The notes under the pieces were generated by a model. That model was not told where the DNA came from. It saw only the letters and a list, made by a program, of their open reading frames with translations, and ran no database searches. Positions 5,057 to 34,670 of a stretch of DNA of 64,000 bases are shown one piece after another; position 1 is the stretch's first letter, and every line of letters begins with the position of its first letter. The stretch is from Meyerozyma guilliermondii (taxonomy: Eukaryota). The DNA is taken from contig CP128816.1 in assembly GCA_051546255.1 (NCBI GenBank), positions 372,001 to 436,000 on the forward strand, in the 5' to 3' direction. Both the position numbers and the translations under genes were made by a program.

Positions 5057-8000
5057 ATGCCAGATGAAAGACCACTTTCACACATCAAGACCTCGCTTAT
5101 TAGCGATGAATTGAGTCAAAATGAGATGGTGGACACTGTCCATGGTTTGTTTGCTTTGCTAAATTCAGAAATTGAAGAACTGCAACAAACTCTAGCTTGT
5201 GACTGTATTTCCATATGGATAACAAAGTGTCTAAAAATGAACTCTCAGGACTTGGCATCTCAATTCACATTCAAATACGCAGATACAGTCTTCTACTACG
5301 TCCTTGATCTTGGAGGAAAAGATACCGGCCCTCTTGCCAATTCTTTGTCTGGTCTATTCACCAAGACTATCACCATATTGAAGAAATATCAGCAAAACTT
5401 TCAAGATACTTTCAAGTCGTGGATCGACAAGACAATGACTATTCCTAGTGATTCCAAGCAAAAGTACATGCTTATCGAGAAAGTTGGGAGTAATATAGAC
5501 GACGAGTACATTGCTTCTCACTACCTGGAATTCTGTGCTAATGCCATACAAACTATGTCTTCGAATCGACTTGCGAATGTTATAAGCAAGGCACTTTTGA
5601 CCACCTGGAAACCATTTCTCAAGACACAATTCCCCGAAGAAACAGTAATGCAATGGCTCAATGTGTGGTTTGATACGGTATTGAAGGGCTTGAAAGATTT
5701 GCAACTTCGTTCAAATATAACAACTTACCTCATGCCACTTTTGTTCAAGCAATGTCCCTCCTGCTATACTATATTCTTATCCAGAATCGAAGGTCCTCTA
5801 GGTTTAAGTGAAGATTCATCGACTGATCTTTTGATTGGAACATTGAAAATTGGCCAAGACTTGGGTCTCAAAGGTGCTGAAGGAACTTCCACCAAAGCTT
5901 TGTTACCTCTTCTCACACACAGAAATGGCGACTTTCGAAATCGAGCATTACAACTACTTGTAGGCAGCAGAAGAAGCACCGACAAAATCGACCAAGAGAT
6001 ATATTTCACGATTATCTCAGAAAATTTACTTGCTTTATTCATTCTGGAAAACCAGGCAGTGGAAAGTCAGAATAGCTTCATCTCCACGATGAGACAGTTT
6101 CTTATCCGCATCAGAGACTCATGCCACACCGCTGAAAAATCCCGTTCCAACTCTAAGCGACAAAAGGGCAGTGATACAGATAACTTGACTCAACAGATAG
6201 ATGAGGCAAAGAAGTTTCTTGTTCATTTGATCAATACAGCCAAGTCCTACATGGTTCCAGAGTCTTCTTTCTCCCAGCATAGTTGCTCTTTGCAGCTTAT
6301 TGAGCTTATAATTGAAGCTAGGGTATGCCCAGACTTGAATCCAAAGTCGAAATTACTAGTGCAATCGAAGCATATGCTCCACAATAAGTCCAAGTTTCCT
6401 TTCTCCATTGAGGTCTTTGATGCTGAATTGATACGAATTTTACTCGATGATCATACGAGCAATTACCGCTATATCAGAGAACACAGCGCTCAAATACTAT
6501 TGTCATATGACCCGGAAAAACTTTCAAGTATGATTCTTCAGCACTATGATGTACTATACAATCGTGCTCTTGCACTACTTGCTGACCTTAAGGGTCGTTC
6601 AAGTGAGGGAGGGGCATTCATTATCAAGATTTTGGGACAGGTTTATCTTGAAACTGAGAGATTCGACTCATTTTTTGAAATTTTTCAGAAGCTTGTCCTT
6701 CAATTGGAGCTGAATATCAATGTTCTTAAAGCCAGCGGTTTTGACGATGAGAAACCCAACATTGCCCACGGTGCCCTCTCAGCCCTCAGTATGTTATGCG
6801 AGAGTATAATCGATTCAAAAGATGTCAAATTGGTCTCAGAATTGCACAGCTATGCCAATCAAATATTGTCCAATATCACCAGCATATGGGTTTCCGTCCG
6901 TCACAATTTGCAGAACGTGGCTGCGGTTCAAGAAGAGGACTTGCTTCTGGAAAAAAAGGTTGTAACGTTTGGATGGAAAGCGGTGAAAGAGTCAAGCAAA
7001 TTACTTCAAACGTTGATGACTATGCAACTCATGGGGCAGACCAACTTTCTAAATCAACAATGGATTGAGGACTGTGCCTCTACGCTCATGGAGCAGCTAA
7101 CAACCATCAAACATAGAGGTGCCTTTTCGTCAGTATATCCATGCTTCGTCGCACTTTGCAATCTTTGCAACAATTCATATCCAGATATGCCTTTGAAGTG
7201 GCTTGCCAAAAACATTGAAATGATTCAAAACCGAGACCAGCTCATCAGTCGACGTTCGGGAGGAATACCGTATCTCGTCACAGCGATTTTGACTTCGAAA
7301 ACTGCCAATGAAGATATACAGAGCAATACTCTTGAACATCTACTAAGAATTGCAGAAGATCCATACGAGAAGTTAGAAGACGGCAAGAGAGATTTACCAC
7401 AAGTACATGCTTTCAATATCTTGCGTCAAATATTCACTGACCCAGCGTTGAGTGCCCATAACTTCCGCTTCATTGGAAAGGCATTAAACCTCTCTTTAAG
7501 ACTTTTCGTCTCAAAAAACTGGTCAATAAGGAACTGCTCAATGATGCTCTTCTCCACGGTCCACAATAGAATCTTTGGTAAAAGTGAAAAATTACTGGCT
7601 CGTCAATACTTTTCACTTTGTGGTGATTCAAGCAAGTTTCTAGCTAAGACTTTAGGAGATCTGATCAAGACTTCAAATTACGATATGATGTTCCCCATTC
7701 TACAAATCTTGTCAAGAATTTCGTTCCTGGATGGTGACAGTAACTATGAAGAGTTTCACCTGCTTCTTTCACAAAGCGTTCGTTCCAGATCTTGGAAAGT
7801 TCGTGAGATAGGTGCTAAAGCACTTGCTTCAATTATCATTGCAAACCAAAGAATTGAAGTAGCCCAACAAATGTTGGAGAGAACTTTAAAATCCACTGAT
7901 AACAATGAAGCTCATGGCAACTTATGTTCCGTACTGGAACTTATGGAGCTCATTTCTGACCAGAAGGGACAATTGCCTGGCACACTTGGTACCTCAGTTG

Positions 8001-9289
8001 CGGACTTGTGTGTTCAAATTGTTCTACAGAATGACTGCTGGACAGTTCGAGGCAAAGCGACAAAGATCCTTCAAGGAATAGAAAGACTCAACAAGGAGCA
8101 CCTTACAGTTCTTCTCGACTTTTTCAAAGATGAAATCGAGAAAGTTCATCGTACTCTCAATGGAGAGAGGAAATTGTGCTTGAGAAATCTACTCGAGCTC
8201 TTTTTACGAGAGACCTTCGACGAGAAATTGGCTTTCTCTTCCATTCTAGAGTATGTTTTACAACTAGATTTCCACGATGAGCTTAAAGTGCTTGCAATCG
8301 AGTTCTTACTTGAGCACGGTATTTCAAATGTTATTTTGAATACGGCTTTGGTTGACAACTTGGGAGCAATTTTGACTGAGTCTAACTGGAGATATCTTCA
8401 GACCAAGGTCCTTGAGCTTGCACTGCAGCTACCTATTTACAGCTTACAATTACCGCTCCAAACTTTGGAGGAATGGTTCAAAGATCAGAATGATCGAGAC
8501 TCCATTGGTCATGCACTCACCATAATGGCATCTATGGACTTTGACAAGGCACTCATGAATGGCATATTGGACAGAGCCCAGAAACTTTTACTGGAAGAAA
8601 ACTCCGAAAAGACCAGAAAATCAGGACTCACGACTGTTATTAGAGTTGCTGAAAACCAAGAACAAGCATCTGCAATCAGTTCAAGAGCCTTAATGATTGT
8701 CTATGATTCCCTTTGGGATGATAGCGAAGAGCTAAGATACATGTGTTCGGAATACCTTGCTTCAAAAGTGGAATTGAAAAGCTCTCAATCTCCATATCAT
8801 ATAATGGCCCGGTTCATTGATGTCATTCCAACATCTACTCACATCGCTGAAAGTGCCTGCAACTACTTTATATCTTGTGAGCCGAGAGTCTCAGAGTGCC
8901 TTGCTAACGCAATTACAAACCGTGAAAGCACAGACCAGCTCTTTGAAATTGAGGAAGTTAACTTGTACAAGAACAATATCGACCGGTGCACAAGTAGCAT
9001 AAAGTTGGCTGAACATGTTAAAGATGCAATTTCTGAGACTAGGATGGAGAATATGCTTCATTTTGTGCGTGAAGACCTCCTGAAAATTGTTCAACACATA
9101 AAACTAATGGGAAAGGATGGTCCAGCTGGTTGGCTCCGCGGACGGTTCGAATTCGAAAGTGTCTATTGTACCATTATTCGAGCAAAATGCATCGAAAATA
9201 TTTTGAAAAGTCACGAAATACTCGGAGAATTGCGGCTGTTGGGACCAGAATTGGAGATTCACCCTACTATCGCTAAGCTTCTTGATTGA
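5057..9289 (+). CDS. TRM732: Trm732/THADA, armadillo-fold partner of Trm7 (DUF2428)
   Basis: 1410 aa helical protein with KHRGAFSSV, RRSGGIPYL, DLPQVHAFNIL, WSIRNC; PAC-like GATGAGATGAG at 5019-5029. Confidence 0.9.
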   Translation: MPDERPLSHIKTSLISDELSQNEMVDTVHGLFALLNSEIEELQQTLACDCISIWITKCLKMNSQDLASQFTFKYADTVFYYVLDLGGKDTGPLANSLSGLFTKTITILKKYQQNFQDTFKSWIDKTMTIPSDSKQKYMLIEKVGSNIDDEYIASHYLEFCANAIQTMSSNRLANVISKALLTTWKPFLKTQFPEETVMQWLNVWFDTVLKGLKDLQLRSNITTYLMPLLFKQCPSCYTIFLSRIEGPLGLSEDSSTDLLIGTLKIGQDLGLKGAEGTSTKALLPLLTHRNGDFRNRALQLLVGSRRSTDKIDQEIYFTIISENLLALFILENQAVESQNSFISTMRQFLIRIRDSCHTAEKSRSNSKRQKGSDTDNLTQQIDEAKKFLVHLINTAKSYMVPESSFSQHSCSLQLIELIIEARVCPDLNPKSKLLVQSKHMLHNKSKFPFSIEVFDAELIRILLDDHTSNYRYIREHSAQILLSYDPEKLSSMILQHYDVLYNRALALLADLKGRSSEGGAFIIKILGQVYLETERFDSFFEIFQKLVLQLELNINVLKASGFDDEKPNIAHGALSALSMLCESIIDSKDVKLVSELHSYANQILSNITSIWVSVRHNLQNVAAVQEEDLLLEKKVVTFGWKAVKESSKLLQTLMTMQLMGQTNFLNQQWIEDCASTLMEQLTTIKHRGAFSSVYPCFVALCNLCNNSYPDMPLKWLAKNIEMIQNRDQLISRRSGGIPYLVTAILTSKTANEDIQSNTLEHLLRIAEDPYEKLEDGKRDLPQVHAFNILRQIFTDPALSAHNFRFIGKALNLSLRLFVSKNWSIRNCSMMLFSTVHNRIFGKSEKLLARQYFSLCGDSSKFLAKTLGDLIKTSNYDMMFPILQILSRISFLDGDSNYEEFHLLLSQSVRSRSWKVREIGAKALASIIIANQRIEVAQQMLERTLKSTDNNEAHGNLCSVLELMELISDQKGQLPGTLGTSVADLCVQIVLQNDCWTVRGKATKILQGIERLNKEHLTVLLDFFKDEIEKVHRTLNGERKLCLRNLLELFLRETFDEKLAFSSILEYVLQLDFHDELKVLAIEFLLEHGISNVILNTALVDNLGAILTESNWRYLQTKVLELALQLPIYSLQLPLQTLEEWFKDQNDRDSIGHALTIMASMDFDKALMNGILDRAQKLLLEENSEKTRKSGLTTVIRVAENQEQASAISSRALMIVYDSLWDDSEELRYMCSEYLASKVELKSSQSPYHIMARFIDVIPTSTHIAESACNYFISCEPRVSECLANAITNRESTDQLFEIEEVNLYKNNIDRCTSSIKLAEHVKDAISETRMENMLHFVREDLLKIVQHIKLMGKDGPAGWLRGRFEFESVYCTIIRAKCIENILKSHEILGELRLLGPELEIHPTIAKLLD

Positions 9290-9358: not shown

Positions 9359-9549
9359 TATAAAAAGGCATCGATGCGAATAATTTTCCAGTCTTAATTT
9401 CATAAGGTATGTAATCCATGAATTCGCTGATGAACGAAAACACACAACTACGAATTTCTTCACCTGAACCACCGTGTAGAACAAAATTTTTCAGAGCTTT
9501 TTAACACTGAGAATTCGATTACTAACAAAAGCTTTACATTTCTGTTCAG
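9359..9549 (+). other. Non-coding spliced snoRNA host unit: TATA box, short exon, intron from 9407 to 9531 or 9549
   Basis: TATAAAA 9359-9365; GTATGT 9407-9412; TACTAAC 9520-9526; AG at 9531 (AAAAG) or 9549 (TTCAG). The only exon-1 ATG stops after 7 codons. Confidence 0.8.
9420..9516 (+). ncRNA. SNR47: Box C/D snoRNA snR47 (guides for 25S and 18S rRNA), intronic in a non-coding host
   Basis: Box C TGATGA 9428-9433; guide GAATTTCTTCAC + D' CTGA 9464-9467, complementary to 25S GUGAAGAAAUUC; guide GAGCTTTTTAAC + D CTGA 9507-9510, complementary to 18S GUUAAAAAGCUC; terminal GAATTC/GAATTC stem. Confidence 0.92.
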
Positions 9550-9772
9550 AAACGACTGTGGGCTTTGATACCCATTCTGCCGTAGAGTATTGTACTAGCA
9601 CAGTAGTTCGAATACAACTTGAGTACAGCTTGAATACTGTTTCAACAGCTTCAAATTGTACTTGGTTTCACGAGAACTACACAACTTTTCCCTTCGCTAA
9701 TTTCATCACGTGATTCCATCTCTCATCGCTACTTAATAATCTTTACTCTTCATCACTAAATCCCAGACTAAC

Positions 9773-10765
9773 ATGGCTGATGAGTTCCCAGCCTTGTGTA
9801 GCGACTGCTTTGGTCCCAACAAAAACATCAAGATGGTGAAGCAACAAAACGGAGAGGAATGTAAGTCATGTACACGGCCCTTCACAGTGTTTCGATGGAA
9901 TAATAAAACTGGTTCTCGTCGTTCCAAAAAGACCATTATTTGCATTACATGTGCACGAGCAAAGCATTGCTGTCAGAGTTGCATGTTGGACATTGTATAC
10001 CGAATACCGTTAGAAATCAGAGACACAGCACTTAAAATGGCTGGTCTTGAGGGTGCTTTTGGAGATGCAAAAATGCTCGGAGAAGGACCTGCTTTTCGAG
10101 AAACCAAGGCTATCAAGGCTGATCGGGCTGAAGCTGCGTACCGAAACCAAGATGACACGATGCCTGTAAGCGAAAAGGAGAAAAAAGCTCGAGAAATGCT
10201 TGAAAAATTATCGCTGCGATTAACAGAGAAAGAAGCACATAGCGGTCAAAAGTCAATTAAATCTGCCAAAGAACTGCTGAAAATAGATTTGAAGTCCGGA
10301 GACATACAAAAAGTTGTGTCTAAACTACCGTTCGGAGGACTGCTTGCTGACGACGATGCTACTTGTACATCATTTTTTGTTTTCGGTTTCGATGAGACTT
10401 TTCCTCAGTATATGCTAACCGACTACTGTTCCAAATTCGGTACTATAAAGTCAATTGTTATGGTGCACAGAGCAAAGTGTGCCTTTGTCACCTTCTCCTC
10501 CAAACTGTCAGCACAGGCATTTGCAACAGAGGTTGATAATAATGGGTTTAATAACAATAAGAAGACCGCAGGCATTTTGGTAATTGAGAAGTATTTTATG
10601 CGAGTAGCATGGGGCCACCCCACAAAACTAGGATACACAAACGATGACCAGAAGAAGATCAGATTGGTCGCAGACAGCGTTATGCGCCAACTTGCTGAAA
10701 AGGATAATAAGTCCAAACCTGAAAAAAGGCCCAGAATGCCCAGAATAGGAGCGAAAAAAGCATAG
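9773..10765 (+). CDS. SLT11: Slt11/Ecm2 pre-mRNA splicing factor
   Basis: N-terminal Zn fingers (CSDC, ECKSCTRPFTVFRW, CARAKHCCQSCMLD) plus RRM (KCAFVTF, RVAWG). Confidence 0.9.
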   Translation: MADEFPALCSDCFGPNKNIKMVKQQNGEECKSCTRPFTVFRWNNKTGSRRSKKTIICITCARAKHCCQSCMLDIVYRIPLEIRDTALKMAGLEGAFGDAKMLGEGPAFRETKAIKADRAEAAYRNQDDTMPVSEKEKKAREMLEKLSLRLTEKEAHSGQKSIKSAKELLKIDLKSGDIQKVVSKLPFGGLLADDDATCTSFFVFGFDETFPQYMLTDYCSKFGTIKSIVMVHRAKCAFVTFSSKLSAQAFATEVDNNGFNNNKKTAGILVIEKYFMRVAWGHPTKLGYTNDDQKKIRLVADSVMRQLAEKDNKSKPEKRPRMPRIGAKKA

Positions 10766-33615: not shown

Positions 33616-34670
33616 TCATGGCTCCTTTTCCAAGGTATCGGCGCTATTGGCGGCACTCTGGTTCTCCATTTTGAACCGCAGAGCCCCATGGCCGTTCATG
33701 AGTTTTTTGTATTGGTGAAGAATGTGTTTGTCTTTATAGCGGGCTTCGCGAATGGCTGTGGTTTGGGCTTTGATGATGCTATGGATGTCGAGATCATTGG
33801 GGTTCTGCAATTTGTTTTTGGAGTTGAAGGACACTTCGTCGCCGATCTCTTTGGTGACTTCGTAGTCGTCAATGTCTTCTTCGGGTAGATCGTCCCATGT
33901 CTTTAGTGGTGTCTTGAGGTCATATTTGCCAGTGGATTCGTTTTGTTTCATGATTATATATTGGCAGTGGGGAATATTTCGGAGCGATTCGAACTCCTCG
34001 TAACTCCATCGAAACCATTTCATCAAAAATACTCGCGCCCAAATGCCGTGGGTCACAAGAACGAGAATATTGGGGAAGTCTTTCTGGCGAAATTGGCGGA
34101 ATAAAGACTCGTTGAAACTGGCAGCTCTATCATAAACGTCTGCTGCCAGCTCACCGTGAGGAATCCGGTAGAAAAAATGGCCATAATGAGCTCGTTCTTC
34201 CCACACTTTTTCCATCTCTTCCGGGGTCGATTGAAAGTTGCCAAAATCCTGCTCCCGCATCCGTGGCTCTTCGTTGACAGAGTATTCCACATCCGGCAAG
34301 TCCTTGATTTCATTGATAATGTCGGTACACGTTTGTCTTGCTCGGGAATACGGCAGAGTATAGAACAGAATCGACTTGCAACTTCGCAGCAGAGGACAAG
34401 ATTTATTGCATTTTTCAAACTGGTCGTGGTCCAAGAACGATCGGAGCACTATTCCAGCGTTTTTGGCTTGCTTGTGGCCAGTTTCCGTGAGCACAACTTT
34501 GTGGTTGGCGATAAATCTGTTAACTGATTTGTCACAATTTCCTTCCGATTCGCCGTGACGAACAAGAAGTATGTACTGAAGGTTAGTATTTGTTGACGTT
34601 GGAGTATGCCAGCTATATAGCCGAAATATAGACAAAAAGTCGAGTTGATACATACTTTTGGTTTTGCCAT
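33616..34670 (-). CDS. DET1: Histidine phosphatase Det1, spliced (exons 34670-34656 and 34575-33616), 324 aa
   Basis: GTATGT...TACTAACCTTCAG intron gives MAKPKYILLVRHGESEGN; REQDFGNFQ, LVTHGIWARVFLMKW; adjacent to TPI1. Confidence 0.92.

Follow-up and report, generated by a model that had tools for sequence, protein, structure and literature searches.

The window analysed here, a stretch of 64,000 nucleotides of Meyerozyma guilliermondii DNA, harbors a small nucleolar RNA (snoRNA) gene of the box C/D class, enclosed in a predicted intron and lying between two protein-coding genes of the same strand, TRM732 and SLT11 (ECM2). An Rfam covariance-model search assigns positions 9423-9512 to snR47 with 69.8 bits, above the gathering score of 61 (E 5.4e-6), and bears out the identity proposed in the original prediction. 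This is the sole Rfam family listed in the window, at gathering score or with E values up to 1, and the same scan led to rejection of any further snoRNA, be it within the host or elsewhere in the window. The elements that had been named from the letters alone (TATA box, GTATGT, snoRNA boxes, GAATTC stem, TACTAAC and AG dinucleotides) are all found at their positions. They are listed here together with the neighbouring genes and a downstream hairpin.

5057-9289, + strand: TRM732 (THADA family), 1410 aa, upstream gene; Pfam PF25150, PF10350 and PF25151
9359-9366, + strand: putative TATA box TATAAAAA of the host transcript; a TATA-like word stands at a comparable place in 6/6 syntenic loci
9367-9406, + strand: exon 1, upper bound; holds just a 7-codon frame at 9374-9397
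9407-9412, + strand: predicted 5' splice site GTATGT, present in 6/6 syntenic loci
9420-9425, + strand: 5' arm of the terminal stem, GAATTC; each species has its own stem of 5-8 bp
9427-9433, + strand: box C (C-TGATGA), from the Rfam alignment; TGATGA (9428-9433) is invariant in 7/7 aligned sequences
9445-9453, + strand: extra 9-nt complementarity to 18S rRNA; its reverse complement is at position 629 of the L052 SSU rRNA, beside the D-guide target
9452-9463, + strand: D' guide, 12 nt, for LSU rRNA; perfect complement in the L052 LSU rRNA, with A at D+5
9464-9467, + strand: box D' CTGA, from the Rfam and seven-sequence alignments
9474-9480, + strand: putative divergent box C', assigned from its position; TGT-R-GA is conserved in alignment A1
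9494-9505, + strand: D guide, 12 nt, for SSU rRNA; perfect complement in the L052 SSU rRNA, with A at D+5
9507-9510, + strand: box D CTGA, from the Rfam and seven-sequence alignments
9511-9516, + strand: 3' arm of the terminal stem, GAATTC; separated by 3 nt from the branch heptamer and by 8 nt from the branch A
9520-9526, + strand: branch sequence TACTAAC, predicted branch A at 9525; no second TACTAAC on the + strand of the window
9529-9531, + strand: candidate proximal 3' splice site AAG, giving a 125-nt intron; L009 and L021 likewise have AAG as their first AG
9547-9549, + strand: candidate 3' splice site CAG, preceded by many pyrimidines, giving a 143-nt intron
9603-9680, + strand: hairpin in the downstream exon, with an inner 21-bp stem (9616-9667) and a UUCA loop; G-U pairs favour the + strand
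9773-10765, + strand: SLT11/ECM2 (RBM22-type splicing factor), 330 aa, downstream gene; Pfam PF21369 and an RRM

The snoRNA displays boxes C, D', C' and D in that order, flanked by the terminal stem. Its box C carries a C instead of a purine before TGATGA, likewise in the orthologous loci L005 and L020 (see below), and its box C' is divergent. The D guide pairs over 12 of 12 positions with nucleotides 619-630 of the SSU rRNA of L052, and the D' guide pairs over 12 of 12 with the LSU rRNA of the same locus. The D+5 rule designates an adenosine in both cases, SSU 622 and LSU 2224, in agreement with the two targets foreseen by the original prediction (18S A619 and 25S A2220). Judged by position, and with L052 being the rRNA of another eukaryote, SSU 622 and LSU 2224 would be equivalent to 619 and 2220. 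In S. cerevisiae, snR47 guides 18S Am619 and 25S Am2220, according to the accessible text of a preprint (bioRxiv 10.1101/2024.08.07.607065), one passage of which swaps snR47 and snR78. The extra pairing adjoins the D duplex on the L052 SSU rRNA, overlapping it by 2 nt, and additional rRNA pairing has been described for snR47 in the available part of PMC3116282. Taken together, the locus is best annotated as Meyerozyma snR47, a dual-guide box C/D snoRNA predicted to direct 2'-O-methylation of the A619 and A2220 equivalents. The adjacent SLT11 agrees with a Meyerozyma (Debaryomycetaceae) origin: its relatives belong to CTG-clade yeasts, its 90% cluster contains a protein named from Meyerozyma sp. 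JA9, and its table-12 translation is identical to an NCBI protein encoded on a 1.97-Mb contig.

The rRNA used above comes from a scan of public genome contigs with short words derived from the window, which returned at least 47 loci. Among the matches listed, three loci have the targets of the two guides on a single strand; two of these loci were scanned and proved to be eukaryotic rDNA. Five loci on viral contigs were discarded as an rRNA source and treated as chance, 0/4 scanned giving an Rfam match. Four viral contigs (L025-L028) share a stretch that reproduces ~20 nt of the 18S site exactly; it has no Rfam match and is probably a coding coincidence. Many bacterial assemblies (L029-L075) contain contigs matching eukaryotic 18S words; 2/2 scanned are eukaryotic rDNA, presumably contamination.

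Signals for splicing are complete around the snoRNA. GTATGT at 9407 and TACTAAC at 9520 flank snR47, and the intron predicted originally from them finds its counterpart in 6/6 syntenic loci, where the order is kept. Given the local base composition, GTATGT and TACTAAC would both lie no farther than 60 nt from the snoRNA with a joint chance of ~1e-4. In the 64 kb, TACTAAC occurs once per strand, and both copies have a GTATGT upstream. The copy on the - strand belongs to a predicted 80-nt intron (34655-34576; GTATGT, TACTAAC and a CAG 6 nt later), which interrupts a protein gene starting at 34670 after its fifth codon. Once joined, the reading frame of this gene carries an RHG motif that we take to resemble that of a histidine phosphatase/phosphoglycerate-mutase protein. 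Two further near-matches to the heptamer, in 9407-9772, were rejected as branch sites: TACTAGC at 9593 is devoid of a branch A, and GACTAAC at 9766 abuts the SLT11 ATG, with no such use evident. Of the two candidate 3' splice sites, CAG 9549 is moderately preferred over AAG 9531, all C. parapsilosis cluster I introns ending in TAG or CAG (PMC5033589).

The predicted spliced host (9367-9772) has a 7-codon frame as its sole ATG-started frame, as expected from the earlier claim that the host exon holds no real ORF. The 6-bp terminal stem of the snoRNA is matched in 30 of 5000 shuffles of the flanks. It does not appear in the minimum free energy fold of the free intron RNA, which is no better than that of shuffled sequences (z 0.16), and the stem would therefore need protein to form.

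Relatives of this locus were collected by scanning metagenomes with a two-guide pattern, which yielded 23 loci (25 matches); the same pattern found none in prokaryote genomes or viral contigs. Six loci with SLT11 downstream on the same strand were retained for the spacing comparison: L005 (Sungouiella intermedia-like), L009 (Metschnikowia pulcherrima-like), L010 and L014 (C. albicans-like), L020 and L021. TATA, GTATGT, snR47, branch heptamer and AG follow each other in identical order in 6/6 of them, with unrelated spacers. The TATA box precedes the 5' splice site by 48 nt in the window, against 50-81 nt in these loci. Terminal stems are species-specific: arms swapped between a pair of species match over just 2-4 bp, as compared to the 5-8 bp of the own stems. 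TRM732 is also the upstream neighbour in L009, L020 and L021, as found by tblastn. In the C. albicans-like loci, ALG14 is upstream instead of TRM732: ALG14 and a PSO2-like nuclease gene precede snR47 in opposite orientation, and in the window both follow SLT11. This order points to a local rearrangement that kept snR47 beside SLT11.

The other 17 of the 23 metagenome loci, having no SLT11 synteny or no clear yeast-type branch site, were left out of the comparison. Branch-like words nevertheless occur in several of them: CACTAAC ~66 nt after box D in L011, TGCTAAC ~95 nt after it in L015, and, in candidate animal-type introns, CACTAAC at ~19 nt in an L016 copy and GGCTGAT at ~17 nt in an L002 copy. 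Intron signals are absent from L019. Among these 17 loci, there is no yeast-type TACTAAC as close to box D as in the window. In two contigs, L004 (1-1152) and L008 (7-1204), both U36/snR47 guides, with boxes C and D, occur in a sequence lying ~200 nt downstream of an RNase MRP RNA and in its orientation; this sequence gives no snoRNA match at the Rfam gathering score.

The distance between box D and the branch site distinguishes the window from all six syntenic loci. Box D is located 15-18 nt upstream of the predicted branch A 9525. It is separated from the branch heptamer by 9 nt, against 27, 32, 44, 44, 38 and 41 nt in the syntenic loci, and from the branch A by 14 nt, against 32-49 nt; the original remark that this spacing is unusually short holds. 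Linkers outside the stem measure 13 nt and 8 nt (stem end to branch A), 21 nt in total; in the orthologous loci, the 3' linker spans 24-42 nt and both linkers together 39-79 nt. A published model of the A complex gives minima of 20 nt from stem to branch A and 42 nt in total, with no pairing within the 20-nt zone (PMC12350175). These limits were derived in a simplified way for generic stems in introns of S. cerevisiae, and not for snoRNPs or Meyerozyma; on this scale, the 20-nt limit is passed by 6/6 orthologous loci and the 42-nt limit by 5/6 (39 nt in L005), and the terminal stem of the window, ending 8 nt before the branch A, falls inside the 20-nt zone. On this coarse model, a closed C/D motif and a bound U2 snRNP would be unable to coexist here.

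According to the accessible part of a review (PMC8162545), a position ~50 nt upstream of the branch point is optimal for C/D snoRNP assembly. With just 14 nt separating box D from the branch A, this gene falls outside the position-dependent class, whose 3' ends lie tens of nt (~50) upstream of the branch point. The consulted portions of PMC5824354, PMC2780460, PMC11028025, PMC9045821, PMC4138321, PMC11460701 and PMC13736004 give no yeast figure for this spacer. In the literature consulted, no report of so short a spacer was found; compact P./M. guilliermondii cases may be found in supplements or in Mitrovich 2010, Vincenti 2007 and Hirose & Steitz 2001. The spacing is a real deviation of the locus, in a layout that is itself already published. 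Indeed, snR47 is listed as a "non-genic intron" gene in four Candida species (PMC5033589, S1 Table), and non-coding snoRNA hosts as well as de-intronization have been documented in these yeasts (available portions of PMC3596301 and PMC4202332). The statement that Candida-type yeasts keep snoRNAs in non-coding host introns was thus true and yet understated, and snR47 in such an intron is not new for CTG-clade yeasts.

As to the functioning of this locus, we consider it probable, on the strength of the sequence and its conservation, that snR47 resides in the single predicted intron of a short spliced non-coding Pol II host, and that its snoRNP forms only after U2 has left the lariat. Transcription would start from the TATA box at 9359, and consensus and conservation suggest splicing from 9407 to 9549 or 9531 through the branch A 9525. 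Because box D and the 3' arm of the stem both lie less than 20 nt from the branch A, a U2 snRNP on the branch region would keep the C/D motif from closing. Assembly would be completed, aided by the 6-bp stem and the core proteins, once the excised lariat has lost U2. As with known intronic snoRNAs, the lariat would then be debranched, and exonucleases would trim ~13 nt on the 5' side and 15-33 nt on the 3' side, yielding a cap-free snoRNA. Cap removal has been put forward as a reason for excision from introns, capped snoRNAs being mislocalised (accessible text of PMC12508059). The spliced exons would be a by-product; that splicing serves solely to free the snoRNA remains a proposal of the original prediction. 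Splicing appears to be under selection, since perfect splice signals persist amid fully diverged spacers. Two observations count against this scheme: the protein-free fold of the intron lacks the terminal stem and, in S. cerevisiae, shortening this spacer reportedly lowers both snoRNA level and splicing (Vincenti, 2007).

The exon downstream of the intron bears on the nature of the host. The hairpin at 9603-9680 has a folding energy of -24.2 kcal/mol and a z-score of -4.4, for a segment chosen after the hairpin had been seen; the whole 223 nt before SLT11 fold with a z-score of -2.1. It is possible that this hairpin marks the end of the host RNA, as an RNase III or a termination signal. The idea of a conserved downstream hairpin was rejected, a similar one being found in 1/5 orthologous loci tested (L020) and absent from four. 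The segment 9550-9680 also contains seven words that we take to resemble Nrd1/Nab3 motifs, a number reached by 492 of 10000 shuffles, which is borderline.

Alternatively, the SLT11 mRNA might carry the intron in its 5' UTR. Splicing would then free snR47 and remove three intronic AUGs at once, and how much of a splicing factor is made would depend on the competition between snoRNP assembly and U2 binding at this tight site. This is unlikely in our view, and less likely than a separate non-coding host, although several observations speak for it. SLT11 starts 223 nt after CAG 9549, on the same strand and with no ATG in between, a point absent from the original prediction. These 223 nt, whose lack of ATG is matched by 486 of 10000 shuffles, include no TATAWA; the missing ATG fits a 5' UTR and counts to that extent against the preferred reading. 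Furthermore, SLT11 is found downstream of snR47 on the same strand in 6/6 syntenic loci, including the rearranged C. albicans-like ones, where the 114-nt gap is ATG-free, and snR79 in a 5' UTR intron of four Candida species provides a precedent. At 4/5 distinct orthologous loci, however, 6-11 ATGs intervene between the 3' splice site and SLT11. In addition, a Candida study that uses RNA-seq and recognises UTR introns has snR47 as non-genic, C. albicans included (PMC5033589), and the -24 kcal/mol hairpin and the seven Nrd1/Nab3-like words suit a terminator more than a leader. An elaboration of this alternative, in which the shrunken intron makes box D and the branch site one footprint, so that snoRNP and U2 are mutually exclusive, would turn an SLT11/ECM2 leader with upstream AUGs into a switch that makes splicing-factor output depend on how much C/D snoRNP protein is available; we hold it to be highly improbable.

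The competition could also end in favour of the snoRNP, Snu13 closing the C/D motif once box D is transcribed and blocking U2, in which case snR47 would mostly mature from the unspliced precursor by termination and trimming, like the monocistronic S. cerevisiae gene, and the intron would be on its way to de-intronization. Transcription indeed reaches box D ahead of the branch site, and the modelled U2 footprint overlaps box D. Splicing-independent processing has a precedent (PMC5033589), de-intronization is documented in these yeasts (in part of PMC3596301 and PMC4202332), and S. cerevisiae snR47 is described as monocistronic (accessible text of bioRxiv 10.1101/2024.08.07.607065). This remains a doubtful route, given that consensus splice signals, with a TACTAAC as rare as one per strand in 64 kb, are perfect amid diverged spacers and argue for selected splicing, and that a capped leader would have to be removed, while folding revealed no 5' cleavage hairpin. 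Very improbable, finally, is that the short spacer results from an assembly error or from a private deletion in one strain. The spacer is known here from one Meyerozyma sequence; nevertheless, the window is free of N, its SLT11 is identical to proteins P0105 and P0109 encoded on ~2-Mb contigs, and stem, branch heptamer and acceptor are intact, whereas a random deletion would tend to damage them.

An snR47 gene in an intronic layout amounts to routine annotation for a CTG-clade yeast. Physiological stakes are small because loss of snR47 alone has little effect on growth in S. cerevisiae, according to the accessible part of bioRxiv 10.1101/2024.08.07.607065. What the locus offers is a real snR47 gene in a host of published type, with one measurable deviation in spacing. 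Should the intron splice well and snR47 be normal, a C/D snoRNP could be built wholly after U2 release, and the spacing rule would be no physical necessity in yeasts. Should the host be the SLT11 leader, a cis-regulatory snoRNA would be added to a splicing-factor gene.

Among known systems, terminal or external stems reportedly compensate for a poor intron position and allow splicing-independent C/D snoRNP assembly (Hirose 2003, Vincenti 2007). Those cases are said to concern engineered or far-upstream positions and longer stems, whereas here a natural gene lies too close to the branch point with a stem of 6 bp. The animal SNORD36/U36 (Rfam RF00049, clan CL00051) carries the same two guides, is intronic and is matched by the same pattern scan; the flanks of the animal U36 loci presumably correspond to RPL7A. 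It differs in being located in introns of a protein-coding gene and in a review optimum of ~50 nt upstream of the branch point (accessible part of PMC8162545). S. cerevisiae snR47 (Rfam RF01203) shares with the Meyerozyma gene the guides, the predicted targets 18S Am619 and 25S Am2220 and the extra rRNA pairing, but is described as monocistronic in the accessible text of bioRxiv 10.1101/2024.08.07.607065, in contrast to the full splice signals found here. Closest are the Candida snR47 genes (PMC5033589), which belong to the same family and lie in the intron of a short ORF-free host delimited by GTATGT and TACTAAC. In the C. albicans-like loci, snR47 is, as here, directly upstream of SLT11, with 44 nt instead of 9 nt between box D and the heptamer, and an intron of 177 nt instead of 125-143 nt.
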